Positions 1 through 51,290 of a stretch of 64,000 nt of DNA are shown one piece after another. The stretch is from IMG/VR virus record IMGVR_UViG_3300037471_000673, positions 32-64,031 of that record. One strand, written 5' to 3'. The translations under genes and the position numbers were made by a program. Under the pieces are notes generated by a model that saw only the letters and a list, made by a program, of their open reading frames with translations, was not told the DNA's origin and did no database searches. The stretch comes from a virus. Taxonomy: Duplodnaviria; Caudoviricetes. Within the stretch, counting starts at the first letter, position 1. Each line of letters starts with the position of its first letter.

Positions 1-147
1 TGCGAACAGACGCAGCGCAAGGTCGAAGAAATCGGCGAGCGCAGTGCGGCCGCGGCCGAGAAATTCGGCCTTGGCTCAGCAGGTACTCGTGGCGTGGATA
101 CGTCCCGCGCCCCCTCTGATCCCCAACGTAACGAAGGAGGCAAGTGA
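1..147 (+). CDS. 3' end of a small cassette gene (5'-truncated by the window)
   Basis: Frame 1 is open from base 1 (...KFGLGSAGTRGVDTSRAPSDPQRNEGGK*). Its stop overlaps the ATG at 147. Confidence 0.7.
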   Translation, partial: CEQTQRKVEEIGERSAAAAEKFGLGSAGTRGVDTSRAPSDPQRNEGGK

Positions 148-464
148 TGCCCCAACTCAAAGCAACCTGCCCCATCGACGGCGAGCCGAGCATCAGCGAA
201 ATCGTCGCCGAGTTGGCGGCGGGCGCTTTCATCGAACTGCACGACGACGGGCGCTACGAGCTGCGCCATCCCGGCAAGTTCATCGGCGATCACACGATGC
301 AGCACCACCTGATTCGCCACGGCTGGCTGGACAGCACCGCGAACTGCGGCGGCTACGTTCTGTCTACAGACGGACACCGCGCCTACATGCGCAGCACCGA
401 CGAACTCGGCAACGGCGAGTTGGTGCCGCCACTCCCCCGTGGCGTGCGGGAGAACGGCAAATGA
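147..464 (+). CDS. Hypothetical cassette protein
   Basis: GAAGGAGG RBS then ATG; ends PRGVRENGK*. Confidence 0.8.
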   Translation: MPQLKATCPIDGEPSISEIVAELAAGAFIELHDDGRYELRHPGKFIGDHTMQHHLIRHGWLDSTANCGGYVLSTDGHRAYMRSTDELGNGELVPPLPRGVRENGK

Positions 465-628
465 TCTACGGAACCTACGGCGAGGGGTGCGAACACTTCC
501 GCTTCCGCCGAGTACGCCCCGGCGTTTATCAGCGCGTGGTGCGCCTGTTCGGCTTCTTGTGGTTCGTGGACAAGGGACGACAACTTCGTGACCATGACGC
601 CATGTTTTTCCCGATGGAATCACCATGA
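461..628 (+). CDS. Hypothetical protein (55 aa)
   Basis: ATGA overlap with the upstream stop; GGAG RBS within the repeat arm. Confidence 0.7.
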   Translation: MIYGTYGEGCEHFRFRRVRPGVYQRVVRLFGFLWFVDKGRQLRDHDAMFFPMESP

Positions 629-861
629 CTCATCCACACATTGATGGCGTGTGTGCGCGTTGCGGCGGTGCTGGCACGGTTCCCGAAGTGCAGGCGCTGT
701 TGCGAAAGCTGTGGCTCGAAGGCGGCGGCAATCCCGACATCGCCGAGCCAACCGAACAGGAAGTAGCAGACCTGATGCATGGCCTCACTGTCCTTGTCGA
801 TGAATATGAGCGCGAGGAAGCGGAACGCATTGCTGGCGTGCAGGAGAACGGCAATGGCTGA
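625..861 (+). CDS. Hypothetical cassette protein with CxxCxG motif
   Basis: ATGA coupling; CARCGG near the N-terminus; ends IAGVQENGNG*. Confidence 0.75.
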   Translation: MTHPHIDGVCARCGGAGTVPEVQALLRKLWLEGGGNPDIAEPTEQEVADLMHGLTVLVDEYEREEAERIAGVQENGNG

Positions 862-1057
862 AATTAAGTTCACCGAGCAAGAGGCACGACAGGGCTATGC
901 GATGCGCAACGGCACGAAGCACTACTGCTGCTATGGCATGTACGCCGACGTAGGCCATTCAGAAGACTGTAAACACTTCTGGAAGGAAAAGAACGAAGCG
1001 CGCAAGGCTGGCTCAGCAGGTACTCGTGGCGTGCAGGAGAACGGCAATGGCCGGTAA
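854..1057 (+). CDS. Hypothetical cassette protein (Cys/His-containing)
   Basis: ATG and RBS supplied by the repeat right arm; ends GSAGTRGVQENGNGR*. Confidence 0.75.
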   Translation: MAEIKFTEQEARQGYAMRNGTKHYCCYGMYADVGHSEDCKHFWKEKNEARKAGSAGTRGVQENGNGR

Positions 1058-1349
1058 CGCTAGCGCCCGCTACTTCACCGAGTTCATGAAGAAGTGGTAT
1101 CCGATGTTCTCGCGTCGCGCTACGCAGCTTTGCATCCTGAGCAGCGCGATGGAAAAGATCGCACTTGGCGCGCCTGACGCGCGGGCCATCGCAATTCTGG
1201 CGCTTGAGCAATCTGACCCGTTCGGATGGAAGCAAAGGCGTGACCCGTTGATGGTTGTAGCCGGATTGCTGCCCGACTCATCAGGTACTCGTGGCGTGCC
1301 ATCCGTCTCACCGACTGCTGATCCCCAACGTAACGAAGGAGGCTCGTGA
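1047..1349 (+). CDS. Hypothetical cassette protein
   Basis: ATG in the repeat arm; ends SGTRGVPSVSPTADPQRNEGGS*. Confidence 0.75.
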   Translation: MAGNASARYFTEFMKKWYPMFSRRATQLCILSSAMEKIALGAPDARAIAILALEQSDPFGWKQRRDPLMVVAGLLPDSSGTRGVPSVSPTADPQRNEGGS

Positions 1350-1618
1350 TGCCCAACTACAAGCTATTCCATGTGGACGATTGCATGTACATCGCGGCCA
1401 TGACCGGCGAGGAAGCCGCCGCCCACGTCAAGGACGAATGCGGCGATGGTTGCGGCGAGTCGGTGAGCGAAGTCTCGCTCGACATGCGCGTGACGACTGC
1501 GAACGTCGATGACGGCGAGGAAGCCACGCCGGACACAATGACCACAGCAGGCGCGCTTATCGAGGATCACCTCAAGCACGGCGGCAAGCTGCCCTACACC
1601 CTCGGAGGGTCCGAATGA
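1349..1618 (+). CDS. Acidic hypothetical protein
   Basis: GAAGGAGG RBS within the duplicated 26-bp segment; translational coupling on both sides. Confidence 0.8.
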   Translation: MPNYKLFHVDDCMYIAAMTGEEAAAHVKDECGDGCGESVSEVSLDMRVTTANVDDGEEATPDTMTTAGALIEDHLKHGGKLPYTLGGSE

Positions 1619-2304
1619 GCAACAACGCACAACTGGCGCTTTTCATCGGCGCGATGTTCGCGGGCGGCATAGGCGTGCTGCTGTGGGGCGAGCGCCTGCG
1701 GCTGAAGGATCGGCTTGCCGAGACCGAGGACGAGCTGCAACGCTGGAAGCGCGCATGGCGCGACCACGACCGATGGCTCGCGCTCACGCATCCCGGCATC
1801 GAGTTGGTGCTGACGAACCTTCGCCAGCAGGCGGAGGGTAAGCATCCGCTCGACGTGTGCTGGCCGCCATCGAAAACCGGGCCGTGGGAAGTAAGCCGCT
1901 TGCGCGAAGTGCTCAAGACGCGCTACGGGCTCGGCTCAGCAGGTACTCGTGGCGTGCGGGCCATTGACGACACCGCGCGACTCGACTGGATCGCACAGCA
2001 AGGCGGCGACGAGTTCGGCTACGGCGTGATCGCGGACGCTCCCGGCGACGGCAACTACTGGGTCAGCGGCATGGACGGCGCACGCGGGCAAGGCAAGACC
2101 TTCCGCGAAGCACTCGACGCAGCCATTGCTGGCGTGGCTTCGGTTGAAGCGTCGAGCATCACGGCAATGCAGGCGCTTGAGGCGCTGGATGAACTGGAGG
2201 CGTCGGCACGCGGCGACGAGCCGTTCAACCACTTCGCCGCGCCGCTGATTCGCCAGTTCATCGAGCAGGACATTGATGGCGTGGGAGGAAGCGATGCAGC
2301 TTGA
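1615..2304 (+). CDS. Modular hypothetical protein (N-terminal TM/coiled coil; three internal repeat cores)
   Basis: 229-aa ORF with cores at 1950, 2130 and 2277, all in frame. It contains a DTARLDWI...TFREALDAAIA module that recurs in phage accessory proteins. Confidence 0.8.
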   Translation: MSNNAQLALFIGAMFAGGIGVLLWGERLRLKDRLAETEDELQRWKRAWRDHDRWLALTHPGIELVLTNLRQQAEGKHPLDVCWPPSKTGPWEVSRLREVLKTRYGLGSAGTRGVRAIDDTARLDWIAQQGGDEFGYGVIADAPGDGNYWVSGMDGARGQGKTFREALDAAIAGVASVEASSITAMQALEALDELEASARGDEPFNHFAAPLIRQFIEQDIDGVGGSDAA

Positions 2305-2542
2305 ACATTGCCCGTTCTGCGGCACGAAGCACAGCCTTTCGTCGTGCGTTGCTGGCCGCCACCAGCAAGTCATTTGCGGCGCCTGCGGTGCGCGAGGGCC
2401 GGAGGTCTATGCCTTCCTGCCCTACGCCGTCGCCGCTGAGTCGTGGAACGTTCGCAACCAGCCCGCCGAGGTCAACACCACGCACCGGCCTGACGGCGCA
2501 CGTATTGCTGGCGTGCAGGAGAACGGCAATGCCCATGACTAA
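2294..2542 (+). CDS. Lar-family restriction alleviation protein
   Basis: LEHCPFCG...VICGACGARGP...AAESWNVR matches the Lar-like Zn-ribbon pattern (CPFCG...CxxCGA.GP...A...WN.R). Confidence 0.75.
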   Translation: MQLEHCPFCGTKHSLSSCVAGRHQQVICGACGARGPEVYAFLPYAVAAESWNVRNQPAEVNTTHRPDGARIAGVQENGNAHD

Positions 2543-2693
2543 GCAAGAGGTCCGCAGCTTCCTAGCGCAGTTCGACCGTGCGCGCAAGGAAATCAAACGC
2601 TGGCCGAAGTGGATGCAGCGCGAAGCACGGTTCGCCGCTGCGACGTTTCCAAAGCCGCCCACTGTTGGCGTGCAGGAGAACGGTAATGGCTGA
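2535..2693 (+). CDS. Hypothetical cassette protein (52 aa)
   Basis: Coupled start; ends VGVQENGNG*. Confidence 0.7.
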   Translation: MTKQEVRSFLAQFDRARKEIKRWPKWMQREARFAAATFPKPPTVGVQENGNG

Positions 2694-2784
2694 CTTTCCG
2701 TGGTGGGGCTGGATATTCGTCGCCCTCGCCGTGATCGGCTTCGCGCTCGCCTGCTGCAAGGCGTGGGAGAACGGCAATGGCTGA
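2686..2784 (+). CDS. 32-aa single-pass membrane peptide
   Basis: MADFPWWGWIFVALAVIGFALACCKAWENGNG; RBS and ATG come from the repeat arm. Confidence 0.6.
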   Translation: MADFPWWGWIFVALAVIGFALACCKAWENGNG

Positions 2785-3073
2785 ACAACTTCCACAGCTT
2801 CCGCTGCCCCGAGTGCGTCGACACCGCACATCCTGCGCCGTATTCGGTCCGAGTCCCGGACCCTGCGACTGCGGCTCGCCGCCGAAGGTCTACGACGACG
2901 ACGAGATGCGGCGCTACGGCGAGCAATGCCGAAGAGCCACCGCTGGCGCGCAAGCATTCCCGGCCACCCCAAAACTCAGCACTGGCGCGGCTTCCAGCCC
3001 GATTAACGAATCCGAACCGGCCACCCCCAATGGCGTGCCGGGTGCGGGCAAAACGTCTTCCGAGAAGGAGTAA
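2777..3073 (+). CDS. Hypothetical cassette protein, Pro-rich
   Basis: ATG in the repeat arm; PCDCG motif; core at 3031 read as NGV. Confidence 0.7.
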   Translation: MAEQLPQLPLPRVRRHRTSCAVFGPSPGPCDCGSPPKVYDDDEMRRYGEQCRRATAGAQAFPATPKLSTGAASSPINESEPATPNGVPGAGKTSSEKE

Positions 3074-3078
3074 CAGCG

Positions 3079-3315
3079 ATGCCCGACTTCAAAGAGATCG
3101 CCGAGTTTTCGGTCCAGATTCCTGGCGGCGGTCACTTCCGCGCCTCCTGGCCCCGGTCAATCAGCACGACAGGCCTACGCATGGGCCGCGACATGCTGAA
3201 CCTCACGCTCGATTGGTGGATCGAGAAGGGCCGGGAAGCGAAGGACGCCGAGGCCGAATACGCGAGCTGGTCAATCGCCTGTGGCGTGACAACGCCCGAC
3301 CAGCAACCGAAATAA
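3079..3315 (+). CDS. Hypothetical cassette protein
   Basis: AAGGAG RBS; core at 3282 near the 3' end (CGV). Confidence 0.75.
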   Translation: MPDFKEIAEFSVQIPGGGHFRASWPRSISTTGLRMGRDMLNLTLDWWIEKGREAKDAEAEYASWSIACGVTTPDQQPK

Positions 3316-3327
3316 CGAAAGCCACCC

Positions 3328-3762
3328 ATGAAAAAACTCAAGCCTATGCGGGTGCTGGTAACTGGCGGCCGCACCAAGACACTGCAGCGTCTGGGCATCG
3401 ATGCCGGGGCTGTGCATGTGCAAGTCGTGCGCACGCTCAACGCCATCAGCGCCTGCGGCGATCGTGAGGTGACCATCATTCACGGCGGAGCGACGGGCGT
3501 CGATGCCATGGCTGACGCATGGGCCGATCGCACGCACACGATCAAGGAGGTCTACCCGATTTCCAAAGAGGAGTGGGACAGCCTTGGCAAAGCCGCAGGC
3601 CCGACGCGCAACGCGTTCATGCTCACCAAGAAGCCTGATGTTGTCGTCGCGTTCGTCGGGGGCAACGGCACGATCGACATGGTGGCGCGGGCAAGAGATG
3701 CGGGTGTACGTGTGTTTGAGGTGCCGCGCCCTGCAATCGTCGAGGTGCCTGCGACGTGCTAG
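3328..3762 (+). CDS. SLOG-family (DUF2493/YspA-like) protein
   Basis: RVLVTGGR...IIHGGATGVDAMADAWA...GKAAGPTRNAFML...VVAFVGGNGT pattern. Confidence 0.8.
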   Translation: MKKLKPMRVLVTGGRTKTLQRLGIDAGAVHVQVVRTLNAISACGDREVTIIHGGATGVDAMADAWADRTHTIKEVYPISKEEWDSLGKAAGPTRNAFMLTKKPDVVVAFVGGNGTIDMVARARDAGVRVFEVPRPAIVEVPATC

Positions 3763-5348
3763 TCCACACCCCCAGCAAGTCACTGGTCGTTCACGTGCGC
3801 CCCGACAAGGTGGCCACGCTCAAGGGTATATTTCCGGCGCACCACCGCGTGGTTCATCATGGAGGCGAGGAGCTGCTGGCACTGCCGCACACGATCCCCG
3901 TCACGCGTGTGCTGCGCAACATGGGCATTCGCGCGCCCAGCCCGATTCGCTACTACTACGACTGGCCGCGGCCAGCGCGCTTCACGGCGGTGTTCGATCA
4001 CCAGTACACGACGGCGGAGTTCCTCACGCTGCACAACAAGTGCTTCGTGCTCAACGAGATGGGCACATCCAAAACGGCCAGTGCGTTATGGGCTGCGGAC
4101 TACCTGATGCGGATCGGCCACGTCAAGAAGGTGCTGATCTGCGCGACGCTGTCCACGCTGGAATCTGTGTGGCTCAATGAAATCTTCGACGTGTGCATGC
4201 ACCGCAACGCGCTGGTACTGCACGCCGATGCCGAGAAGCGCCGCGAGATGCTCGCGCGCGATGTGGACTTCTACATCATCAACCACGCCGGGCTGAAGAT
4301 CATCGGCAACGAGATCATCCGCCGCAAGGACATCGACCTCGTGATCGTGGATGAAGCCTCGGTGTACCGCAACGCGCAGACCGAGCAGTACGAAATCCTC
4401 GAACGCGTGGTGCGCGAGAAAAAGCTGTGGCTGCTCACAGGCGCGCCGGCACCGAACGCTCCTACCGACGTGTGGGCCCTTGCGCGTCTTGTCAACAAGT
4501 CGCTGGTACCCGCGCACTTCACCGCGTTCAAGCGCAAGACGATGTCGCAGGTGTCCACCTACAAGTGGGTGCCGCGCCCGGGAAGCCACGAGACGGCGTT
4601 CGCAGCCCTGCAGCCAGCGATCCGTTTCAAGAAGTCGGACTGCCTGACGCTGCCGCCCGTGACATACACCACGCGCAAGTGTGAGCTGGAGCCCGAGCAG
4701 CTGCGCGCCTACGAGCAGATGAAGCTGCACCTCGTGGCCGAAGTGACTAACGGGGCATCACCCGTCACCGCTGTGAATGCCGCCGACAAGATCGCCAAGC
4801 TGCGGCAAATCCTGTGCGGTGCGATCAAGGGCGCAGACGGCAACTACGTCGTGCTGCCGCACGGCAAGCGCCTGAAAATTCTGCAGGAGTACATCGAGCA
4901 GGCCGCGGCCAAGGTGCTGGTGATCGTGCCCTTCAAGGGCATCGCCCGCGTGCTGGAAGACGAGCTGAACGCGTGGCATCAGTCCAAGGGCGACGGCCGG
5001 CGCGTGAAGCTGGTGAATGGCGACGTGTCGCTGACCGAGCGCAACCGCATCTTCCAAGACTTCCGCGACGATCCGGACCTCACGGAACTGGTGTGTCACC
5101 CGCAGGTGATGGCGCATGGCCTGAACATGACGCAGGCCGACATGCTGGTGTTCTACGCGCCGATCTACTCGAACGACCAGAGCGGGCAGGTGATGGACCG
5201 CATCAATCGCCCGGGGCAGACCATGCACATGACGGTGGGGCGCATCGTGGCCAACCCGCTGGAGCAAGGCATCTACGCGATGGTCGAAGGCCGCCAGCAA
5301 GGCCAGATGAACATGCTGGAGCTGTTCAGGAAAGAGGTGATGGGATGA
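3756..5348 (+). CDS. SNF2-like (SF2) DNA helicase
   Basis: EMGTSKT (Walker A variant), VIVDEAS, LLTGAP, GLNM motif V and DRINRPGQ motif VI. Confidence 0.9.
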   Translation: MLVHTPSKSLVVHVRPDKVATLKGIFPAHHRVVHHGGEELLALPHTIPVTRVLRNMGIRAPSPIRYYYDWPRPARFTAVFDHQYTTAEFLTLHNKCFVLNEMGTSKTASALWAADYLMRIGHVKKVLICATLSTLESVWLNEIFDVCMHRNALVLHADAEKRREMLARDVDFYIINHAGLKIIGNEIIRRKDIDLVIVDEASVYRNAQTEQYEILERVVREKKLWLLTGAPAPNAPTDVWALARLVNKSLVPAHFTAFKRKTMSQVSTYKWVPRPGSHETAFAALQPAIRFKKSDCLTLPPVTYTTRKCELEPEQLRAYEQMKLHLVAEVTNGASPVTAVNAADKIAKLRQILCGAIKGADGNYVVLPHGKRLKILQEYIEQAAAKVLVIVPFKGIARVLEDELNAWHQSKGDGRRVKLVNGDVSLTERNRIFQDFRDDPDLTELVCHPQVMAHGLNMTQADMLVFYAPIYSNDQSGQVMDRINRPGQTMHMTVGRIVANPLEQGIYAMVEGRQQGQMNMLELFRKEVMG

Positions 5349-5638: not shown

Positions 5639-6103
5639 ATGGATATCAGACTGATGGAGCCCGAGCAGCTCAAAGCCTTCCTCGCCAAGATTCCCGAGCT
5701 GTCGATCGACAAGAAGATGGAGCTGTACCTGCGGCTGCGCAAAGCCAAGTCCGTTTGCAAGAAGCACATGGACGCGGTGGACGATCAGTACAAGGAGTGC
5801 ATGTCCACCATCGAGAACCACATGCTCGCTGACGCCGACAAGGCCAAGGTCACTGGCTTCACCATTACCGGTCTGGGCACGTCCTACACCGCCGAGACCA
5901 AGAAGATCAGCGTGGCCGACGACGCGGTGTTCGATGCGTTCGTGCTGCAGGCGCAAGACCTGTCGTTCTTCGAGCGGCGCGTGTCCAGCAAGCGCGTGGA
6001 TGCGTACATCAAAGAGACGAAGGTCAACCCCCCGGGGCTGAACATCTTCCGCGAGCGAGTCATGCGCGTGCGCAAGGCCGGCGAACAGATCGCGGAGGAT
6101 TGA
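5639..6103 (+). CDS. Conserved phage replication-module protein (coiled coil)
   Basis: AAGGAG RBS; KE-rich helical protein between the helicase and the exonuclease. Confidence 0.8.
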   Translation: MDIRLMEPEQLKAFLAKIPELSIDKKMELYLRLRKAKSVCKKHMDAVDDQYKECMSTIENHMLADADKAKVTGFTITGLGTSYTAETKKISVADDAVFDAFVLQAQDLSFFERRVSSKRVDAYIKETKVNPPGLNIFRERVMRVRKAGEQIAED

Positions 6104-6304
6104 ATGCAGAACCCCTTCGACGAAATCGAGCGGGCACTGGGCGAGGCGAGAGCCTTGAACAGTGCTATCGATGCGCAGGCGAACTCGATAGCCCGACTAC
6201 TTGTCGGCCATTTGCGCAAAGTTGGCGACTACACCCTCAAGCAGCTGAAAAACGAGCTGCGCCACTACAACATGCACACCGGAAGGTGGAAAGGACCGCG
6301 ATGA
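6104..6304 (+). CDS. Hypothetical protein
   Basis: GGAGG RBS; coupled to the next gene. Confidence 0.7.
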   Translation: MQNPFDEIERALGEARALNSAIDAQANSIARLLVGHLRKVGDYTLKQLKNELRHYNMHTGRWKGPR

Positions 6305-6900
6305 CCGAAGCCCTGATCTCACCCAGCGCCCCCGCGCAGACCACCGACAATTACAACCACGCGATGGTCGACCTCGAAACGCTGGGCACCAAGCCCTTTG
6401 TCCCGATCCTGTCAATCGGTGCTTGCGCGATGCGACTGGACACCGACGATGAGATCGTCGACCTGTTCTTCCAGCCGATCAACCTGCAGTCCTGTCTCGA
6501 CTTCGGGCTGCGCCCCGACGCGGCCACCATCGAGTGGTGGATGAACGATCCTTCGATCATGCCCGAGGCTCGCGCCGCGGCGTTCGGCAGCGAAGGCCGT
6601 GTGCCGCTGCCCACCGCGCTGGACAACTTCACGGACTGGTTGCAGTCACGCCCGCTGCAGCTGTGGGGCAACTCGGCGCGCTTCGATCTGGGCATCCTCG
6701 AAGCTGCCTATAAAGCGTGCAGCAAAGAGCCGCCGTGGTCTTTCCGCGACGAGCGTTGCTACCGTACCATCAAATGCTTACCCGACGCGCAGGGGATCGA
6801 GATGGTACGCAAGGGTACGTTCCACCACCCCACGGCCGACGCGGTCAACCAAGCGCTGCATCTGCGCGAGATCAATAAAAAACTCCAGTTGCATTTGTAG
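6301..6900 (+). CDS. DEDD 3'-5' exonuclease (DUF5051-like)
   Basis: MVDLETLGT...WGNSARFDLGIL...RCYRT...HHPTADAVNQA. Confidence 0.85.
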   Translation: MTEALISPSAPAQTTDNYNHAMVDLETLGTKPFVPILSIGACAMRLDTDDEIVDLFFQPINLQSCLDFGLRPDAATIEWWMNDPSIMPEARAAAFGSEGRVPLPTALDNFTDWLQSRPLQLWGNSARFDLGILEAAYKACSKEPPWSFRDERCYRTIKCLPDAQGIEMVRKGTFHHPTADAVNQALHLREINKKLQLHL

Positions 6901-6940
6901 TTTTTCGCTGTACCATCCCCTTCTCATCAACGAGGTAACA

Positions 6941-8275
6941 ATGTCTTCCAACGCCATTATCCCTTTCGACTCCACCCAGACGACGGGCGTCGCTGTGGTT
7001 CCCGACCACCTCGTGGCGCTGTTCGGCGAATCGGCCAACATCACGCCGCGCTTCTCGATCAACCAGCTGTCGTACCGTGGCAAGGTGTGGCGCCGCGTGG
7101 TCGATGGCGAGGAAACCGTGCTCACGCGCCCCAGCGCTGACAACCCGGGCGACACCGAGCCCGTGCCGGTCGTGAGCGTTGTCATTCTCGATCACAACAA
7201 GGCTCGCAGCCGCGCGTTCTACGAAGGCGCGTTCGAGGAAGGCAAGAACTCGGCGCCGCGCTGCTACTCCAGCGATGGCGTGGCCCCGGACGCTTCCGTG
7301 AAGGAGCCGTGCGCTGCCACCTGCGCCTCGTGCCCCAACGCCGTCAAGGGCAGCAAGATCACCGAAAGCGGCAAACAGACCACGCTGTGCGCACCATTCA
7401 AGCGCGTGGCCATCGTACCCTCGGCCAACATCGGCTCGCATGTGCCCATGCTGCTGCGCCTTGCGCAGACCAGCGTGTGGGACAAGGACAACGGCGAGAA
7501 CGAAGCCAAGGGCTGGTACGCGTGGGACCAGTACCTCGACATGTTGCGCGCCCGTGGTGCCAAGCACACGGCCACGGTGGAGACGCGTGTGAAGTTCGAC
7601 TCGCGCATGGCGTATCCCAAGCTGCTGTTCTCCGCCAGCCGCTGGCTCAATCCCGAAGAAGCAACGGCCGTGAAGTCGCTGCTGGCCGAACGCGAGAAGG
7701 AAGTCGCTGACATCCTGACCGGCAGTGCCGATCGCGATGGCTTGGCGGGCCAGCCCACAGCCGCGGCCCCCGCAGTGAACGCGGAAGCTGCTGCCTCCAT
7801 GGCCGCTGCCGCCGTGCAGAAAGCCGCTGCACCGGCTCCGGTTGCAACGCCCGCCCCGACGCAGGCGCCTGTTGCCGCTGCCCCGAAGCCGCCGAAGAAA
7901 CCTGCCGCAACGCCCGCGCCCGCGCCGCTGGTCAAGACCATGACGGAGAAGGCCGGCCAGTTCACCTACGACCAGCTGATCGCCGAGGGCTGGGACGACG
8001 AGACGCTGATCGCCGAGGGCATGATGGTGATGGCGCCGGCCGCGCCGCAACCGCCCGCGAAACCGAGCACGCCCAAGCCGCCGAAGAAAGCCGCAGCTGC
8101 TGCACCTGCTGCTGAAGCCCCGGCCGTGGACCCGTTCGCCGCCGCTGCGAGCGCCAAGGCCGCACCTGCGCCCGCTGCCACGAACACCGCGCCTCCGGCG
8201 GCCACCGTGGTCAGCGACACGCCGCAGGGCCTGCAGGACTTGCTCGCTGGCTGGGACGACGACGCTGCGACGTAA
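6941..8275 (+). CDS. Putative ssDNA-binding/recombination protein with Zn motif and Ala/Pro-rich tail
   Basis: CATCASCP...C motif, long PA/K linker, acidic tail (GWDDDAAT); located in the replication module. Confidence 0.6.
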   Translation: MSSNAIIPFDSTQTTGVAVVPDHLVALFGESANITPRFSINQLSYRGKVWRRVVDGEETVLTRPSADNPGDTEPVPVVSVVILDHNKARSRAFYEGAFEEGKNSAPRCYSSDGVAPDASVKEPCAATCASCPNAVKGSKITESGKQTTLCAPFKRVAIVPSANIGSHVPMLLRLAQTSVWDKDNGENEAKGWYAWDQYLDMLRARGAKHTATVETRVKFDSRMAYPKLLFSASRWLNPEEATAVKSLLAEREKEVADILTGSADRDGLAGQPTAAAPAVNAEAAASMAAAAVQKAAAPAPVATPAPTQAPVAAAPKPPKKPAATPAPAPLVKTMTEKAGQFTYDQLIAEGWDDETLIAEGMMVMAPAAPQPPAKPSTPKPPKKAAAAAPAAEAPAVDPFAAAASAKAAPAPAATNTAPPAATVVSDTPQGLQDLLAGWDDDAAT

Positions 8276-8749: not shown

Positions 8750-11677
8750 TTGAACGCGCGTGAGTTTCTCGAACTTCTGCTGCCCTCCACAGGGTACATC
8801 TTCACTGCTACGCCGCTGGGCCGTGGCTGGTCCAACACCAGCCACAGGTCGATCGAGTCTGCGGTTGCGCACGTCAATGCGCTGACCTTCGCGGGCCGCA
8901 ACGCGTACTTCGCGGTTTCCACCTACGAGCACGAGCGCGTGTGGGACGCGAACTGGCGCGATCCCGAAAGTGGCAACGTCGTGGGCAAGTGGGTGCAGCG
9001 CACCCAAGCCAACGCGCTGTCCATCAAGTCGTTCTTCCTTGACCTCGACGTCGATGCGAACGACGAGAACAAGTTCGACAGCAAGGAACAGGCGCTCGTC
9101 GAGCTGCGTGCGTTCGTGCAGAAAGTCGGCCTGCCGCGCCCCATGATCGTGGACTCGGGCGGTGGCATCCACGTCTACTGGCCCCTTGCCCACGAGGTGG
9201 CAACAGCGACATGGCGACGTGTTGCTGACATCTTCAAGTCGATCTGCCTGTCCGAGAAGTTTCGTGCGGATCGCTCGCTTACATCGGACCAAGCTCGTGT
9301 GCTGCGCGTGCTGGGGGGCTACAACTTCCGGCGCGGCGCCTACGTGCGGCTGCTGGCACCGGCCACGCCCATTGGCTTCGCGGACTTCGAGCAGCGCCTG
9401 CAGGCGTTCGTCGACCAGCATGGTGTGTCGGTACCCGGGCCTGCGCGCGCTGCGGCCGCACTGCCGGCGATTCAAGGCAAGCCTGCCGATCCCTTCGATG
9501 CGGGCAACCTCGGCGCGAGCAACGATCCGCTGCACCTTGATCGCATCATCTTCGCCTGCCCCCAGATGCAGCTGCAGGCGGCCAACCGCGGGGCCACAAC
9601 GGGTGAGCAGCTGTGGAGAGCGGCGCTGGGCCTCGCCAAGTTCAGCGAACCACTGGAGCCCTCGTATCGCTGCGTGAGCGATGGCCACCCGGAGTTCAGC
9701 GATGCGGCCACGCTGGTCAAGATGAACAACTGGCGCACAGGGCCTACCACCTGTGAGCACTTCCACCAGCTCAACCCCAAGGTGTGCGAGGCATGCCCGC
9801 ACTTCACCAAGATCACCTCGCCCGCGCAGCTGGGGCGCACGGTCATCGAGGCAGCCGCCCCCAAGATCACCGTGGCTACCGACGCTGGCCCGCCGGTCGT
9901 GCTGCAGCTGCCCGATCCACCCAAGGGCTACTCGCGCCGCAAGTCGGACAATGCGATCGTGATGGAGACCGAAGATGAAGACGGCAACCTCGAATACATC
10001 ACGATCTGCCCCTACGATCTGTACCCACTGGCGCTGCGCGCGCAGTCCGGCGAGGTCAACATCGACGAGCGCAGCCAGTGGCGCGTACACCTGCCGATTC
10101 ACAAGGGGCAAGGGCGCGAGGCGCGCGACATCGACGTGCCGCTGGGCCTGCTGTCCGACACCCGCGCCCTGTCCAAGCACCTGTTCTCAAAGGGGGTCAT
10201 CTTGAGCGGCGACCAACCGAAAGCCACCCAGCACTACATGTCAGCGTATTTGCAGAAACTTGCCGACGAGGCGGGGCGTGAAAAACTTTACGAGCGCCTT
10301 GGCTGGCACGACGAGCACCGCACCTTCGTGCTGGGCGACCGGGTGCTGCGCCGCGACGGCTCTATCCAGCCGCACGTTGCTGCAGCGTCGATCCGCAACA
10401 CCACGCGCAACGGGCTGCGCAGCGCCGGCACCATCGAAGGCTGGAAGAACGCGATGCAGTTTTACAACCGGCCCGGCTACGAAGGACATCGTTTCTTCCT
10501 TTACGCGGCGTTAGGTGCCCCCATTTTCCACATGAACGATACGGGCAATAAAGGCGTCCTCATGACAGCCAGCGGCCAATCCGGACGTGGGAAAACTACC
10601 TGTCTTAAAGCCTGCGGTTCGATCTGGGGACACCCCGAGGCGCTCATCATGAACGGCAACAAGGATGGCTCCACGGTCAACGCGCTGTACTCTGCCATCG
10701 GCACCACGCACTCGCTGCCCTTCATGTGGGACGACATCACCGAGCGCGACCCCGACGAGCTGCGCCGCTTCCTGTTAAATATCTCGCAGGGGCAGGGCAA
10801 GCGGCGCATGACCAGCGACTCGCGCCAGTCCGAGCACGCCGACGTGTGGGAGACCATCGTGCTGGCCACCGCCAACACCGACGACATCTCGCGCATCCTG
10901 TCAAGCGGGCGCGACGTGAACCCGCACCTGATGCGCATGGTGGGCGTGGAGTTCAGCGCGATCGACATGGGCGTGGAAGCCAAGATCAAGGCCGACGAGT
11001 TCCTGCGCGAGATGAACGCGAACTACGGTCATGCAGGCCCAGCGATGATGCGAGTGCTGGTGCCGAACTACGATCGTGTGCGCACCGGCTACATCAAGAA
11101 CGTGGCCATGGTCGATCGCATGCTGGGATCGAACAACGCGAGCGCTGAGCGCTACTGGTCAGCCACGGTGGCTGCGGCCTACACGGGCGCGCAGCTGGCC
11201 ACGACGATGGGGCTGATCGACTTTCCTGTGCAGGCCGATCTGCAGTGGATGATCGATCACCTGTCGCAGCAGCGCACGACCATCAAGGAGTCCAGCAGCA
11301 CGCCGCTGGAGCAGCTCACCGCGTTCCTGAACGGGGCGCTGCGCAGCACGCTGATCCTGTCGGCCAAGGCAGCGTCGAACCTTGACAACGTGATCCACAA
11401 GCCGATGGACGAACTGCTCGTGCGCAACGAGATGGACCACAACGTGCTGTTCGTCGCACGCGCCGCGATCATGAAATACTGCGCCGACAACCGCGTGGCG
11501 TTCAAGCCCTTCGAGGCGGCGCTGGAGCGAGAAGGCGTTGTGCTCATTCGCAATGCGCAGAAGGTGCTGGGCGCTGACACCGTGTACGCCAGCGGGCAGA
11601 CGCGCTGCTGGAAGGTCGATGCAAGCCGACTTGGTGGCCTGCAGATGCCGCCACCGAACAATGGAGCGAAACCTTGA
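8750..11677 (+). CDS. Primase-helicase fusion (RepB-like primase, Zn motif, DUF927, SF3-like ATPase)
   Basis: FFLDLDVD and SGGGIHVYW primase motifs, CEHF...CEACPH, GWHD (DUF927-like), GQSGRGKTT Walker A. Confidence 0.88.
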   Translation: MNAREFLELLLPSTGYIFTATPLGRGWSNTSHRSIESAVAHVNALTFAGRNAYFAVSTYEHERVWDANWRDPESGNVVGKWVQRTQANALSIKSFFLDLDVDANDENKFDSKEQALVELRAFVQKVGLPRPMIVDSGGGIHVYWPLAHEVATATWRRVADIFKSICLSEKFRADRSLTSDQARVLRVLGGYNFRRGAYVRLLAPATPIGFADFEQRLQAFVDQHGVSVPGPARAAAALPAIQGKPADPFDAGNLGASNDPLHLDRIIFACPQMQLQAANRGATTGEQLWRAALGLAKFSEPLEPSYRCVSDGHPEFSDAATLVKMNNWRTGPTTCEHFHQLNPKVCEACPHFTKITSPAQLGRTVIEAAAPKITVATDAGPPVVLQLPDPPKGYSRRKSDNAIVMETEDEDGNLEYITICPYDLYPLALRAQSGEVNIDERSQWRVHLPIHKGQGREARDIDVPLGLLSDTRALSKHLFSKGVILSGDQPKATQHYMSAYLQKLADEAGREKLYERLGWHDEHRTFVLGDRVLRRDGSIQPHVAAASIRNTTRNGLRSAGTIEGWKNAMQFYNRPGYEGHRFFLYAALGAPIFHMNDTGNKGVLMTASGQSGRGKTTCLKACGSIWGHPEALIMNGNKDGSTVNALYSAIGTTHSLPFMWDDITERDPDELRRFLLNISQGQGKRRMTSDSRQSEHADVWETIVLATANTDDISRILSSGRDVNPHLMRMVGVEFSAIDMGVEAKIKADEFLREMNANYGHAGPAMMRVLVPNYDRVRTGYIKNVAMVDRMLGSNNASAERYWSATVAAAYTGAQLATTMGLIDFPVQADLQWMIDHLSQQRTTIKESSSTPLEQLTAFLNGALRSTLILSAKAASNLDNVIHKPMDELLVRNEMDHNVLFVARAAIMKYCADNRVAFKPFEAALEREGVVLIRNAQKVLGADTVYASGQTRCWKVDASRLGGLQMPPPNNGAKP

Positions 11678-11895
11678 GCCAAGAAAAGACCGCTATGGAG
11701 CTGGCGTTCGAGCGCGCTACCCGAAAGCACCTCGTGAACAAACTGCTCCCGCCCGGCTACGAGTACAAGACCTATGGGGTTGCCATCACCGCCGAAACGG
11801 AAGGCGATCTGTACGAGAAGATCACAGGCCATCGCAGCGAGGTGCTCGACGCAGCCGAGGAACGCAGGAAAGGCCGGCGCCGTGCCCCCCGCTGA
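11674..11895 (+). CDS. Hypothetical protein
   Basis: TTGA overlap with the primase stop; GGAG RBS. Confidence 0.6.
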   Translation: MSQEKTAMELAFERATRKHLVNKLLPPGYEYKTYGVAITAETEGDLYEKITGHRSEVLDAAEERRKGRRRAPR

Positions 11896-12538: not shown

Positions 12539-12880
12539 TCAAGGCTGAGTTGTGACAGCCGCGGCCGGCGCCTTCACGGTCAGGGCGAGCAGCGACGCGA
12601 TCGCCGGGCTCTTGGTGAAGATCGTCACGAGCACGGAGACCAGCGGCTCCAGCTTGGCCCACACGGCTTCAATGAGGGGGATGTCCATCTGCGCCTTGGC
12701 CAGCGTGTTGGAGACCCACGTTTTCACGAGATCGAGTTTGACGGTGCCGTTGCCGGGACCGATGGCTGCTTCAGCGGCTTGGATCATGTCGGGCAGCATC
12801 TTGGCCACGCCCACTGCGGCCTGAGCGGCAGGGGCCATGGCGGCGAGCTGGGCGGAGAGTTTTTCGGCGGAGATGGTCAT
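12539..12880 (-). CDS. Hypothetical protein at the end of the lysis cassette (amphipathic)
   Basis: AAGGAAG upstream; last gene of the late operon. Confidence 0.75.
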   Translation of the reverse strand: MTISAEKLSAQLAAMAPAAQAAVGVAKMLPDMIQAAEAAIGPGNGTVKLDLVKTWVSNTLAKAQMDIPLIEAVWAKLEPLVSVLVTIFTKSPAIASLLALTVKAPAAAVTTQP

Positions 12881-13695: not shown

Positions 13696-14303
13696 GCGAG
13701 TGCCTCCTGCGCGCGCTGCGCGAGTTGGGTGATGTGCTCCATGCCCAGCGTGCCGCCATTGACTTTGCGCCGCAGCTTGACTTGGTCGCCGAGCATAGTG
13801 TCGGGGATGGTTCCTTCCCACCAGCCGATCGCAGCATCGAGGCCGTAATGCGGCTGCAAGATCAACTGGGGCAAGACAGTGAGGTCTTGCCCAATGAGGT
13901 CTCCGACGTGGTCGTAGGCCGCGCGCCCCGTGATCATGATCGGGCACTTGCCGGCGAAGTCCCAGCCGTCCTCGGGCTGCGTGTTGCCCATGCGCCCACC
14001 GTACACCTTGTTGGCCAGTGCGCGTGGGTTGTGTGCATAGGGCACGGCGTCATCCACGCGTGGAAAGCGCATCGGCCACACGGCAACGATGCGATCAGCG
14101 GAGTAGTTCAGGTTTTCCTGCAGGCATTCGAGCATCGAGCACTCCCACAGGATTTGCGGCAGCCACGACTTGATATCGTCCATGCCGGCGGAGAAGCGCT
14201 CGGGCTGTACTTCATCCTCGAAGGCTGAAGCCCACGCGACGGCCGTCGTTGCCTGCACACCCATCGCGCATAGAATACGGTCCCAGTCGCGTTCGGTGAT
14301 CAT
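13692..14303 (-). CDS. GH19 (chitinase-like) endolysin
   Basis: PQILWE...QENLNYSA...NPRALANKVYGGRMGN...DGW...ITGR..Y pattern of phage GH19 lysins. Confidence 0.85.
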   Translation of the reverse strand: MITERDWDRILCAMGVQATTAVAWASAFEDEVQPERFSAGMDDIKSWLPQILWECSMLECLQENLNYSADRIVAVWPMRFPRVDDAVPYAHNPRALANKVYGGRMGNTQPEDGWDFAGKCPIMITGRAAYDHVGDLIGQDLTVLPQLILQPHYGLDAAIGWWEGTIPDTMLGDQVKLRRKVNGGTLGMEHITQLAQRAQEALA

Positions 14304-15540: not shown

Positions 15541-15963
15541 TCAGTCTCCGTGGGTGGGCGTGTAGTTGCAATGCATCGGGTGGCCGGCGAGTTCTTCGTG
15601 CACACGGCACAGGCGAGCGAACTCGCGTTTCTCGGCACCCGACTGCCATACGGCCGCGGCTGCGACAAGGCCGACAACCGGAGCCGCTGCGGCCGCACCA
15701 GCAAGCACCAGCAGGTTGCTCGCCGTCGCGCCCCACTTCACCGACGAAAGCGTGTGCAGGCACTGCGTCTTGTCAGGCTCGGGCAGCGTCTCGCAGTAGC
15801 CGGCAAACGCGAAGCCACCGATGCAAGCGGGCACGGCACCGATCGGATTGAGTTCGACGCCGAAAGCACTCGTGATGCAGTCCGACGCGCTGGCAGCCTG
15901 CACGGTATTGCCCATGGCAGCCCCAGCTGCGAGAAGAAGCAGCGAGGCGAGAAACTTTTTCAT
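15541..15963 (-). CDS. Secreted Cys-rich protein
   Basis: Signal-peptide-like N-terminus MKKFLASLLLLAAGAAMG; six Cys. Confidence 0.7.
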   Translation of the reverse strand: MKKFLASLLLLAAGAAMGNTVQAASASDCITSAFGVELNPIGAVPACIGGFAFAGYCETLPEPDKTQCLHTLSSVKWGATASNLLVLAGAAAAAPVVGLVAAAAVWQSGAEKREFARLCRVHEELAGHPMHCNYTPTHGD

Positions 15964-15977
15964 AGTGCCGGTCTCCT

Positions 15978-16775
15978 TTACTGTGTACCCACGCAGATGA
16001 ATTGATACTTGTCACTGGTTGAAGGGGCGGTGCCGTTCGTCGTCACCGTCATGGTTGTCGTGGTGGTGACGACTGCGATCGGCATCTTGCCGACGACCAT
16101 GGTGGAAAGCGCCGACTGCACCACGCATGCCGGCGCGCTGGCCCAAGTTCCGTTGAACGTAACGACCCAGCCGCTTGCCGGCGCCCCCGTGCCCCCCATG
16201 GTGACGATGCCGGCGGTATCTGTGCCGGCAACACTTGAGGAGGTACCGCAACTTGCAGTACACGTCGGGGCCGTCGTCTGTGTCGCCGCCAGCTGGGTGG
16301 CACCAGTTCCGGTACCCTGCACAAGAACCTTTGCGGTCGTGCCGCGCCACTTCGGGCTGCTTGCATCGGTCGTGAACAAAGGCGAGGTGTCGAAAACAAA
16401 CTTGCCGGTACCTGTAGCGCCCGTACTCGTCACACCCTCAACCGTCTGATGCCCTGTGAAGGAGTTGGCAGCATCCGTGCGCGCGATAGTCGCCGAGGTC
16501 GACGGGAAAGTCATCGTCGTGCCGTCAGTGCCTGCGAGCGTCAGCGAGTTGTTCACGGTCAGAGCCTTGCCGGCCACACCTGAATATCCCGCTGACGATG
16601 CGAGCCGTGTCCACGTGTTTGTCGCCGAACAGAAATACTCCCCGGGTCGAGAGCTTCCCTGCAGGTAGGTCGTATCGCCTGTCGTGCAAGTGGTAGGCAA
16701 CACAACGCTGACCGAGTCCGCGCCTGCGGCGCACACCGATGCAAAGAGAAGAAGGAGTGCGAGAGTTCGTTTCAT
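15978..16775 (-). CDS. Fibre-like protein with N-terminal signal peptide
   Basis: MKRTLALLLLFASVCAAGA; T/G/S-rich body; C-terminal VTFNGTWASAPACVV fibre-tip-like domain. Confidence 0.7.
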   Translation of the reverse strand: MKRTLALLLLFASVCAAGADSVSVVLPTTCTTGDTTYLQGSSRPGEYFCSATNTWTRLASSAGYSGVAGKALTVNNSLTLAGTDGTTMTFPSTSATIARTDAANSFTGHQTVEGVTSTGATGTGKFVFDTSPLFTTDASSPKWRGTTAKVLVQGTGTGATQLAATQTTAPTCTASCGTSSSVAGTDTAGIVTMGGTGAPASGWVVTFNGTWASAPACVVQSALSTMVVGKMPIAVVTTTTTMTVTTNGTAPSTSDKYQFICVGTQ

Positions 16776-16780
16776 GGTGT

Positions 16781-18802
16781 TCAGCTCGTCGGCGCGTTGA
16801 GTGTGCGATAGACCGTCGTCAAGCGCAGCGCACCTGCGCCGGGGTTGACGTTGGTCGTGACGGTCAGCGTCGTGGCGCTCGCCACATATTGATCCGCGTG
16901 GGCGCACGGAACCAGCACGTAAGTGGTCCCTGCCGTCAGCGTGGCATTACTCGTCACGGCCGTGCCGATCTGGCAGAACGCGTTGCCACCGGTAACCTTC
17001 ACCGTGAAGTTCGCAGCAGTCGTGATTGTCGTCGTGACACGAACCAGAATCGAATCGATAATTCCAGACGCTGCGGCAAGGTTACCGGCCGTGTTAGTCG
17101 TCGTCGCACCAGTTGCAAGGGTGAGTAACTCGGACGCGGAGTTCCGCGAAACGTAGGAGCCGTTCGCGTCAGCGATGACTTTGTACGCCCCTTTAGTCGT
17201 CCCTGCAGTAGCCCCAGAAAATCGAAACACTCCTGCTGCATCGCGGTCAAGTATGGTATCCAACGTCCCGTTGTAGGCGCCGCTAGTGAATCCAAGTGGG
17301 CTGGTGCTTGAGAACTGAATGTTGCCGGCAATGCGCAAATCGCTTTGCCCGTCGATACGGCCGGAGAAGGTGTTGTTCCCGGCAATACTGTTCGCTTGCC
17401 CACTCGCGCCGAGGGTCAGCCCGCCGAGAAAGTTGGCTGCGATAACCGACGTTCCGTTTTTCTGAATGTCGATGATGTTGCCGCCCGCTTGCGCGGTAGG
17501 AACGACATTCACCAACAGCCCACTGAACGTCACGGCGCCGTTATTCCACGTTTGCGTAATCGTGAAAGGATCGCTCGCAGTGATAGTGCCCGCACCGAAG
17601 GTCGGGATGCCGTTGGCGCTGACGGACGAGTGAAGCACCGCACCGAACGCCCCCGCGTTGCGGTACTGCAGCTCCGAACCCGTTCCCGCAGGAGTCGCAC
17701 TAATTGCGATGTCGCCCGAACCGATGATGCTCGTGCTGTTGATCGTCTTGAGGTCCGTGCCGCTGACGATGGCAGAAAATCCACCGGAGCCGTTGCCCTT
17801 CAGGATGCTCGTGCCACTCGTAGCTGGTGCGTAGTCCGTTCCACTCGTCGCCGCGCTCACGAGTCCCGCACCGTTGGCCTTCAGAATGCCGCTTGTCGTT
17901 CCTGCTCCGCCGCGAGCCGCCGCGAGCGTGCCCGACGAAATATTGCTCGCATTGGTCGTGTCGGTTGTGGCCGATGCCGCAAACGCTGATCCGTTTGTCT
18001 TGGTACAGGTGATGCCACCCGTGCTCGCGACTGCGCAGTCCCCACTCGCGCTAACCGGTGCGTACGCAGTACCACCTGCATTGCCTACAAGCAGCTGCCC
18101 CGCACTCGGGGCCGTGTTGGGGACAATCGCAGCTTTTGTTTGTGTATCGTTCGTGACGCTGCCTAAACCAACATCGGAGGCCGTCACCGTCACGTTCGCG
18201 CTCAGCGCATGGCCGTTAACGGTGGTCGAAGGTGCGACGTAATCGACAGCTGCCGTCGCGCTACTAAAACCACCTGTACCACTACCTTTGAGAATCGACG
18301 TGCCACTCGTGGCGGGCGCGTAATCGGTCCCGGACGTGGCATTCGCGAAACCCCCCGTGCCGCTGCCCTTGAGAATCGAGGCACCACTCGTGGCGGGCGC
18401 GTAATCGACCCCACTCGTGGCCGCGGTGATCGGGTTCACTCCGTTGCCCAGAAGTAGCCCGGTAATCGTGGAGAGCGTCGCCGTCGTCGCCGTGATGCTG
18501 CCGGTACTTACGCTCGTCGGCGTGATCGCACCAAGCCCGACAGAAAAAGCAGGGGTCGTCGTCGGGGTGCCAACAGTGCAAGTAACACCATTCGCCGGAG
18601 TACACGACGCGCTTGTGACGGTGCCACCACCCGTGAACGTCTTGATCTGGCCCGCCGTGATCTTGACACTCGCACCGGACTGCACACCGTAGACCAGCTC
18701 TGGCCCACTCAGCGCTGAAGCCGCCGGCAAGTTCGACAACGTGGAACTCTGGCCAAACGCCAGCCCCCACACGAGGGCCAATAGGCCAACAACGCGCTTC
18801 AT
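16781..18802 (-). CDS. Tail fibre-like protein with signal peptide and internal repeats
   Basis: MKRVVGLLALVWGLAFG, then LSNLPAASALSGPELVYGVQSG (fibre N-terminal motif); repeats of ATSGxDYAPATSGxSILKGxGxGGF. Confidence 0.8.
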   Translation of the reverse strand: MKRVVGLLALVWGLAFGQSSTLSNLPAASALSGPELVYGVQSGASVKITAGQIKTFTGGGTVTSASCTPANGVTCTVGTPTTTPAFSVGLGAITPTSVSTGSITATTATLSTITGLLLGNGVNPITAATSGVDYAPATSGASILKGSGTGGFANATSGTDYAPATSGTSILKGSGTGGFSSATAAVDYVAPSTTVNGHALSANVTVTASDVGLGSVTNDTQTKAAIVPNTAPSAGQLLVGNAGGTAYAPVSASGDCAVASTGGITCTKTNGSAFAASATTDTTNASNISSGTLAAARGGAGTTSGILKANGAGLVSAATSGTDYAPATSGTSILKGNGSGGFSAIVSGTDLKTINSTSIIGSGDIAISATPAGTGSELQYRNAGAFGAVLHSSVSANGIPTFGAGTITASDPFTITQTWNNGAVTFSGLLVNVVPTAQAGGNIIDIQKNGTSVIAANFLGGLTLGASGQANSIAGNNTFSGRIDGQSDLRIAGNIQFSSTSPLGFTSGAYNGTLDTILDRDAAGVFRFSGATAGTTKGAYKVIADANGSYVSRNSASELLTLATGATTTNTAGNLAAASGIIDSILVRVTTTITTAANFTVKVTGGNAFCQIGTAVTSNATLTAGTTYVLVPCAHADQYVASATTLTVTTNVNPGAGALRLTTVYRTLNAPTS

Positions 18803-35126: not shown

Positions 35127-35128
35127 GA

Positions 35129-35887: not shown

Positions 35888-35890
35888 GCC

Positions 35891-51011: not shown

Positions 51012-51290
51012 ATGAGCGAAGCTGCACGCCAAGCGCACATCACGCTGCATGACGGCATTCCGCCGGACCCCGAGGACATGAATGACAACCGTGCGGATTG
51101 GGCGGGCCTCGCCATCCACAAGTTCGCCCAGACCACCGGCATGGATGAGGCTAATGAGGACAACGACACGATCCTCAGTGACATGCTTACCGACATCCTG
51201 CACTGGTGTGATCGCAACAAGGTGGACTTCGACGAATGCCTTTCGGTCGCTCGAAGCAACTACGTCGATGAGACAACGTTGCCGACATGA
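51012..51290 (+). CDS. Acidic hypothetical protein
   Basis: DMLTDILHWCD...VDFDECL...Y.DE pattern. Confidence 0.7.
   Translation: MSEAARQAHITLHDGIPPDPEDMNDNRADWAGLAIHKFAQTTGMDEANEDNDTILSDMLTDILHWCDRNKVDFDECLSVARSNYVDETTLPT

Follow-up and report, generated by a model that had tools for sequence, protein, structure and literature searches.

The 64,000-nucleotide window analysed here, part of a 64,031-bp IMG/VR virus record (IMGVR_UViG_3300037471_000673), belongs to a lytic-type phage, hereafter G0, and carries at its two ends an array of small genes punctuated by exact copies of the heptamer TGGCGTG (the core). This array is very probably a translationally coupled chain of promoterless gene and protein-module cassettes that are separated by a portable site and exchanged at its core. 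Judged from nucleotide identities of 96–100%, cassettes bounded by the core have moved recently between lytic-type G0 and unrelated temperate phages of the same soils, two of which are represented by the array-bearing viral records G1 and G2; further contigs are given L-numbers. New here is the observation that conservation of the sequences flanking the core lies mainly at silent codon positions and forms an imperfect dyad that resembles the layout of a tyrosine-recombinase core site.

The exact core occurs at 13 positions in the right piece of the array at the start of the window and at two in the left piece at its end, all on the + strand and all where the first-pass annotation had placed them, and the − strand has no copy inside the array. 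Once a 363-bp gap outside the window with one extra core is counted, the array comprises 16 cores in 3,989 bp. Over the whole window and both strands there are 33 copies of TGGCGTG compared to 20.2 ± 4.2 in dinucleotide shuffles, and these shuffles yield an expectation of about 0.5 copies per 3.2 kb of one strand, in agreement with the earlier rough estimate of well under one copy per 3.3 kb. It had been allowed that core density might be similar elsewhere in the genome; the 18 copies found outside the array do not exceed background. The codon-shuffled null that had been proposed as a check gives a clear answer: when the codons of the 15 array coding sequences (CDSs) were shuffled synonymously with the proteins kept, the mean over 1000 shuffles was 1.48 copies and the maximum 6, compared to the 15 observed. 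The spelling T|GGC|GTG is used in 15 of the 18 Gly-Val dipeptides of these CDSs. One-mismatch variants of the core occur at background level and are not commoner than on the opposite strand; the conservation of the heptamer therefore acts at the nucleotide level and is sharp.

Genes in the array were called by hand from the list of open reading frames (ORFs), the sequence and the pattern of G+C content at third codon positions. In these calls all 15 cores of the window are read xxT-GGC-GTG (x-Gly-Val), the frame that had been claimed for every copy, and the codon preceding Gly-Val varies (CGT, GCT, GAT, GTT, CTT, AAT, TGT) while its last base is always T. The same frame is kept by 44 of the 45 cores in the arrays of G0, G1 and G2. 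It is also found in 10 of the 15 coding background copies, which justifies the earlier caution that frame bias alone is weak evidence. Most cores had been described as lying 5–20 codons before a stop, just ahead of the next ribosome-binding site (RBS) and start, and this applies to 12 of the 15 in the window, where 7–18 codons separate the core from a stop overlapping the next start; the remaining three lie at an N-terminus (645) or at internal module joints of a 229-aa ORF (1950 and 2130). In G1 and G2 about 40% of the cores join protein modules inside long ORFs, far from any start.

A typical cassette consists of the core, 5–18 codons and a stop overlapped by an RBS and start, a gene body, a left arm and then the next core, and the gene body has no stop of its own. 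The proposed anatomy of the core-to-core unit, namely the tail of the upstream gene, an RBS and start and the body of the next gene, is thereby upheld. Some cassettes depart from this plan: they may be start-less and stop-less modules (three in the 229-aa ORF at 1615–2304, six in a 342-aa ORF of G2), contain a complete extra gene, or have a new start at their end, five codons ahead of the core (window 625; G1 14686). Because the reading frame at the core is the same at both ends of every cassette, any order is possible without breaking frame or coupling. With the joint placed within the upstream gene and its frame fixed, a cassette supplies its own unit of stop, RBS and start, and modules can be fused to one another. 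Genes throughout the array overlap at ATGA or ATGGCTGA-type junctions, and no promoter-like or terminator-like sites were found on the + strand across the whole array.

Other arrays were found by scanning viral records for the core joined to one common right arm. G1 is a complete, circular temperate phage of 41,990 bp in which a RecE-like exonuclease gene, the array, a helix–turn–helix (HTH) gene and an integrase gene follow one another, and G2 is a 19.6-kb fragment of another temperate-type phage; each carries 15 same-strand cores in 3–4 kb. Whole-genome blastn between G0 and G1 finds the array cassettes only, at 99–100% identity, and in blastp solely tail-fibre-like ORFs match beyond the cassettes; G2 likewise has no DNA in common with G0 outside the array. 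These tail-fibre-like ORFs (window 15541–18802, − strand; G1 34820–36690) are 37–63% identical, which suggests a common host.

The shared blocks run from core to core. Window positions 1027–1299 match G1 13910–14182 at 98.9% identity, and G1 14175–14296 matches G2 16804–16925 at 95.9%; the first 96 nucleotides of the window, which end at a core, and the last 105, which start at one, are both 100% identical to G1. In the G0 type two cassettes lie side by side that in G1 have three extra cassettes inserted precisely between them, and the junctions at this indel have only the heptamer in common. In L026, a G1-like contig, the right flank is 98.6% identical, the terminal cassettes are different and the break falls at the last core. 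Across the phages that carry such arrays the breakpoints of gain, loss and order thus map to the core with base precision, a comparison on which the first-pass annotation had staked its case, and its proposal that exchange at the core would insert, delete or swap small genes in frame is borne out by the core-to-core blocks, the three-cassette insertion in G1 and the break in L026. The arrangements recur in other assemblies. That of G0 is found again at 100% identity in L144 and L137, two independently assembled contigs from other Joint Genome Institute (JGI) samples, and L147, from another sample, reproduces the G1 order. Logan contigs with an end at a core and with other neighbouring cassettes came from four further soil and rhizosphere studies; such contigs are unitig-like, so that alternative neighbours are visible in them and circles or frequencies are not, and several Logan joints with sides of only 20–25 nucleotides are not relied on. 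No RNA data set appeared among the sequencing runs listed.

Further searches added little. No match to the G0 or G1 array was obtained in the isolate phage collection, and the 17-mer CAGGTACTCGTGGCGTG gave chance single matches only in genome_contigs (39) and metagenome_contigs (70). Other arm-plus-core words retrieved just one more G1-like fragment from viral_contigs, and an exact-product look-up of one G1 array ORF gave no match, its called start probably being different. One contig deserves separate mention: L145 (positions 1–1926 of an 11-kb contig) is identical to the window phage from one core onward, and upstream of that core has the pre-array genes of a G1-like temperate phage. Its head is either a true lytic/temperate recombinant at the core or an assembly chimera through a shared cassette.

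The arms on either side of the core are themselves informative. The two flanks of a core vary independently of each other: nine families of right arm occur next to left arm CAGGTACTCG, and right arm CAGGAGAACG is found with seven families of left arm. When related arms are removed, the conserved flank positions are mostly silent codon positions (G−12, A−9, C−6, Y−3 and T0 on the left; G+12, T+15 and C+18 on the right), accompanied by C−10, G−8, G−5, C−4, G+10, C+11, C+14 and G+16, and the left set complements the right set about the middle base of the core. In its ideal form, AGCCG-N4-TGGCGTG-N4-CGGCT, the site is an imperfect dyad whose arms are perfect at position 6096 of L138 and near-perfect at several module–module joints. 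Permutation of columns within codon-position classes reached this degree of complementarity in 0.1–0.2% of trials, with only 12–13 unrelated arms available. Gene-end junctions, which also encode the stop, RBS and start, match the right half-site poorly. A right arm in G2 carries a 1-nucleotide deletion that alters the tail peptide, and the tails therefore matter as DNA (stop and RBS) and not as peptide.

Two isolated sites stand apart from the arrays. A background core on the − strand at 25695–25701, inside a 2245-aa virion gene, has good dyad arms (GGCCG-N4-core-N4-CGGCT), probably by chance. In L138, a temperate phage contig of 42 kb from a Logan run, no more than two cores are present (region 5897–7225), one on each side of a single 80-aa gene; the arms of the second form a perfect dyad, and 47 nucleotides downstream of it comes a gene for TnpB, an RNA-guided nuclease, that is translationally coupled into the gene chain.

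The first-pass annotation had described the array as free of attC-like hairpins, and we concur: the junctions show no recurrent inverted repeats and local folding is no better than that of shuffled sequences. Hairpins of the form CGCC-nnT-GGCG or with an AGCCG/CGGCT stem were considered and rejected; the bases are able to pair, but the first pairing appears in the minimum-free-energy folds of only 14 of 50 sites, with energies equal to those of shuffles. Compensatory changes in the arms are not to be expected because the two arms belong to different cassettes. Rfam gave no match for the site, and antisense or guide copies of the core in G0–G2 amounted to background copies without the arm pattern. 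Resemblances noted by eye to a sigma-54 promoter, an RfaH ops element, a tRNA 3′-end primer-binding site or a Kozak-like sequence were partial and were dropped.

Sequence-directed recombination at the site would take place during co-infection or the infection of lysogens, and could proceed either through excision of a core-to-core circle that is re-inserted at another core or through a double crossover. Two explanations are the most likely. In a site-specific system, to which we give slightly less than an even chance, a putative recombinase of the host or of a helper prophage would act in trans on double-stranded sites of ~25–31 bp in a manner likened to the working of an integron or shufflon; it would bind the arms and exchange strands within the asymmetric 7-bp overlap, so that cassettes could excise as circles and insert anywhere. 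Tyrosine-recombinase core sites consist of inverted arms around an overlap that must be identical between partners, and the invariant 7 bp with degenerate inverted repeats centred on them resemble this layout. The orientation is strictly single, one-mismatch variants do not exceed background, at least one cassette indel is bounded by junctions with only the heptamer in common, and the temperate carriers of arrays encode integrases. In short-homology recombination, which we regard as possible but on balance doubtful, the exonuclease and annealase of the phage itself or template switching during replication would use the identity of core and arms (7–26 bp), and silent positions would drift towards a common sequence as more identity brought more exchange. 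Recombination genes indeed lie beside each array (a PD-(D/E)XK exonuclease and a gp2.5-like protein in G0, a RecE-like exonuclease in G1, Mu Gam in G2), common arm families provide 22–26 bp of identity at many junctions, the conservation at silent positions extends to both sides, and unrelated phages could take part without a shared enzyme. However, annealing-based exchange usually needs far more than 7 bp, and neither the dyad symmetry nor the sharp cut-off between the exact heptamer and its one-mismatch variants is predicted. An imperfect dyad at mostly silent positions makes a dimeric sequence-specific enzyme slightly more likely, and the combination of an invariant asymmetric heptamer, degenerate inverted arms and an indel sharing only 7 bp makes a trans-acting site-specific enzyme the first choice.

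Several observations weigh against such a dedicated system. The window phage yielded no tyrosine or serine recombinase, TnpB or Y1 transposase, and no protein is common to all array-bearing phages; PF00589 has no match in G0, its sole match being the ordinary integrase of temperate G1, which lies 1.3 kb from the array, is neither integron- nor Rci-like by NCBIfam and has no att-like core next to it. Most sites fit the half-sites poorly: a match with no more than one mismatch is present in 13 of 49 left arms and in 10 of 49 right arms, and since only about a quarter of sites have a good half-site, the dyad holds for the consensus. A scan of 401 sampled genomes from the GTDB class of a Burkholderiales metagenome-assembled genome chosen as centre shows no enrichment of the ideal site (one match versus three for the control, as expected by chance). 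Other points limit the reading of the arrays as exchanged cassettes in general: the closest helicase relatives (64–67% amino-acid identity) carry neither the array nor another repeated word, and arrays are known solely from one group of soil and rhizosphere samples. Moreover, all data are metagenome assemblies, and the tail of L137 and the head of L145, possibly chimeric via shared cassettes of 270–310 bp, are not relied on.

Three further explanations fare less well. The core could be a regulatory or binding site, such as a dimeric HTH operator, a stoperator-like element or a signal in RNA or translation, with recombination incidental. Such a role, which we deem unlikely, would agree with the dyad symmetry, with the HTH_11 gene that heads the G0 array and the HTH_3 gene that comes after the G1 array, and with the many cores 14–60 nucleotides upstream of the next start; it is at odds with the large share of G1 and G2 cores inside long ORFs and with the different families of the neighbouring HTH proteins in different phages, no structure is supported, and it does not by itself explain base-exact breakpoints. 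Alternatively, the core might serve the host as a Chi-like recombination hotspot whose copies are grouped in one orientation in the early region; it is indeed a short, polar and strand-specific word, and the Lactococcus Chi sequence GCGCGTG resembles the core in part. Chi, however, boosts exchange within flanking homology and does not join unrelated flanks; elsewhere in these phages the core shows no enrichment, and frame-locking and arms would be left unexplained, all of which makes this reading very improbable. Finally, an artefact of a favoured codon pair or peptide motif, or of chimeric metagenome assembly, is close to refuted. GGC-GTG is a favoured codon pair, as the in-frame background copies illustrate, contigs do end inside arrays, and shared cassettes of the length noted above could mislead assemblers; yet the codon shuffle never came near the observed count, contigs cannot be joined by a 7-bp overlap, the same arrangements recur at 100% identity in independent samples, and in both phages the backbone to the left and right of shared cassettes is consistent.

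The array belongs to a genome whose + strand carries the genes for a DNA polymerase, an SNF2 helicase, a primase, exonucleases and a gp2.5-like protein and whose − strand carries the structural module; the closest isolate by TerL is Pseudomonas phage Rollin, at 46%. Both ends of the record fall inside cassettes 100% identical to cassettes of the co-occurring temperate phage G1. The gap between these ends is closed by L144 and L137, which match both of them at 100% identity and supply the missing 363 bp (L144 2280–2642) with one further core. With record ends inside the array and bridged by independent contigs, the genome is therefore circular or permuted; the linear record is a permuted, nearly complete genome of 64 kb whose assembly was broken in shared cassettes.

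Numbered from left to right, the cores run from 1 to 16, core 3 being the one in the gap, and all features described in the following are on the + strand. Directly ahead of the first core-bearing gene lies the flanking gene for the HTH_11 protein (63287–63532; 81 aa; PF08279, E 2.6e-11). The left piece of the array (63542–64000) runs off the record end and resumes at window position 1 after the gap. It contains a gene for a Cys-rich 59-aa protein (63542–63721) with core 1 (63694–63700), read A-V-G-V eight codons before the stop, and a 78-aa gene (63714–63950) with core 2 (63896–63902), the exact start of a block of 100% identity with temperate G1 (11585 onward); neither has a family match. The next gene, which starts with MADKPGWREGIPCPECG... 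and is cut by the record end (63944–64000), belongs to a cassette 97–100% identical to G1 11585–11870. The right piece (1–3315), with 13 cores and small, translationally coupled genes, opens with the C-terminal part (1–147) of a 126-aa gene whose start lies in the gap; core 4 (90–96) marks the exact end of a block of 100% identity with G1 12656–12782 and L026. A 105-aa gene without family match follows (147–464), in which core 5 (440–446) comes before the tail RENGK-stop, whose stop overlaps the following start as ATGA. The 55-aa gene at 461–628 has its own stop and lies within one cassette. The 78-aa gene at 625–861 is made up of a cassette end (start plus five codons) and a whole start-less, stop-less cassette; core 6 (645–651) lies five codons past its start codon (MTHPHID|GV), which belongs to the upstream cassette, and core 7 (834–840), at which contig pieces from other soil runs start, is followed by the tail QENGNG-stop.

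Next comes a 67-aa gene (854–1057), after which a different cassette follows in run X4. Core 8 (1027–1033) is the left border of the cassette that is common to G1 at 98.9% identity and core 9 (1292–1298) the right border of the same cassette (1027–1299); the 100-aa gene at 1047–1349 has its body in common with G1, and its C-terminal tails differ between the two phages. An 89-aa gene (1349–1618) has no core of its own. The 229-aa ORF (1615–2304) consists of three modules and a tail with in-frame joints at cores 10–12: core 10 (1950–1956) and core 11 (2130–2136) are internal module joints, the latter with near-ideal dyad arms and at the beginning of a contig piece from another run, and core 12 (2277–2283) lies eight codons before the stop. 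The 82-aa Lar-like restriction-alleviation protein (2294–2542; phrog_599, E 1e-7; Lar_restr_allev weak) has core 13 (2509–2515) in its tail, and a 54-aa gene (2529–2693) has core 14 (2666–2672), again followed by QENGNG-stop. Between a gene for a hydrophobic 32-aa protein (2686–2784) and the next gene (2777–3073; 98 aa) a degenerate core, AGGCGTG (2759–2765), read in another frame (K-A-W-E-N-G-N-G-stop), is accompanied by the usual GGAGAACGGCAATGGCTGA junction with its unit of RBS, start and stop, and probably represents a decayed junction (2759–2784 as a whole). Core 15 (3031–3037) is followed by the tail PGAGKTSSEKE-stop and its right arm is present in G1 and G2 too; the last core, 16 (3282–3288), where a contig piece from another run stops, lies in the last cargo gene (3079–3315; 78 aa). 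The right flank is formed by a SLOG/YAcAr-type protein (3328–3762) and the SNF2 helicase (3756–5348).

The cargo consists of ORFans except for the Lar-like protein. Mostly ORFan early genes that include an anti-restriction protein make the array probably a toolbox for host takeover or counter-defence, and the cargo is probably a counter-defence gene pool circulating among phages of one host community. A cassette-borne ORF of G2 (L025, 18739–19140) matches the C-terminal domain of nine PHROG families of unassigned function with E-values down to 4e-39; this domain is widely shuffled. In G1 (L146, 5597–6016) a 139-aa ORF with a faint match to GIY-YIG nucleases lies between the HTH gene at the end of the array and the integrase gene. 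Both L006 (112–8912) and the window (51287–62810) contain several genes for small proteins of one family, whose conserved N-terminus is MNREQMIAWLTLEGW-like in L006; the repeated 10–16-mers of L006 are the N-termini of this paralogous gene family, unrelated to the cassette core and not an alternative core.

Taken together, the array may represent a site-specific cassette system of soil phages that is new to description, although we put this overall interpretation somewhat below even probability: a double-stranded site of ~25–31 bp with inverted AGCCG arms and an asymmetric, in-frame TGGCGTG overlap, a putative recombinase acting in trans, and stop-less, promoterless gene or module cassettes moved between unrelated lytic and temperate phages. 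If true, it would be an integron for phage early genes that also performs protein-module fusion akin to exon shuffling, and a dedicated enzyme, if it exists, would constitute a new recombination system and a possible tool. The origin of mosaicism at gene borders has long been debated, with targeted exchange at conserved linkers on one side and random illegitimate joining followed by selection on the other. With one site 15–16 times per genome, base-exact breakpoints and very recent transfer, the array provides a clean natural case of targeted exchange and makes this long-standing question experimentally testable.

Amongst published ideas, PeSL cassettes and boundary sequences come nearest to the array. 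The PeSL (promoter–early–stem-loop) cassettes of T4-type phages consist of a repeated short motif amongst small ORFan early genes in a plastic region; genes are gained, lost and replaced between phages at the motif, and neighbouring copies can recombine to mini-circles (PMC2839356, PMC4122927). PeSLs are intergenic, comprise a sigma-70 promoter and a stem-loop terminator, and their exchange has been seen between close relatives (PMC2839356, PMC4122927). The motif between small ORFan early genes and the indels and replacements between phages at the repeat are shared with the array described here. In contrast to PeSLs, our site lies inside coding sequence, is frame-locked, has no promoter, terminator or hairpin and is invariant over only 7 bp, and its cassettes move between phages without other DNA similarity.

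Integron gene cassettes with their attC and attI sites have also been reported in phage genomes (PMC9892861). The likeness is considerable: promoterless, co-oriented cassettes with the site at the cassette 3′ end, a 7-bp border and sharing between unrelated replicons, in the form of exact mobile units that recur in different arrays (the blocks of G0, G1 and G2). The first-pass annotation had called the array integron-like, and as a functional analogy this stands, but no integrase, attI or attC goes with it. There is no IntI and no folded attC with R″/L″/L′/R′ boxes, the core does not read GTTRRRY, and imperfect hairpins of 57–141 nucleotides with an inverse core RYYYAAC and a core GTTRRRY were looked for and are absent. 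Furthermore, the cassettes here have no stop of their own and lend a C-terminal tail to the upstream protein, and some are internal modules.

The shufflon of R64 offers a different parallel. Its sfx sites have a 7-bp central core with degenerate arms and lie in frame in coding DNA, where the tyrosine recombinase Rci swaps C-terminal parts; the sites are inverted and lead to inversions within one gene (pilV), beside rci. The 7-bp core, degenerate arms and in-frame position in coding DNA are all found in our arrays. Unlike sfx sites, however, all sites here are direct and on one strand in all arrays, and the outcome is the insertion, deletion and transfer of cassettes between genomes; no gene for an Rci-type recombinase was found in the array phages. 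As for IS200/IS605 insertion sequences, which have a Y1 HUH transposase and subterminal hairpins, PF01797 and PF07282 have no match in G0–G2, hairpins are absent, and TnpB beside two cores occurs solely in L138.

Short boundary or linker sequences have been proposed for phage mosaicism and are said to be absent at most mosaic joints; gp68 of Island3 is flanked by ~50 bp of duplicated C-terminal coding sequence, the known cases being single events (PMC3029335). The array agrees with this idea in the exchange of modules at short conserved gene-border sequences common to the exchanging genomes, much as the inserted gene of Island3 has a copy of a gene tail at either end; it differs in having one site 15–16 times per genome, in frame, in several genomes and with a dyad architecture. 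The start-associated sequences of Cluster K mycobacteriophages are conserved short words in one orientation just upstream of many starts, tied to translation starts and not reported as mosaic breakpoints (PMC3203893). Here, no downstream start is present at 3 of the 15 window cores or at ~40% of those in G1 and G2, and the cores are breakpoints. Features that define integrons, PeSLs, shufflons, IS200/IS605 elements and start-associated sequences are thus lacking from the array; in function it resembles integron arrays and PeSL regions, and it appears to fit the boundary-sequence idea.

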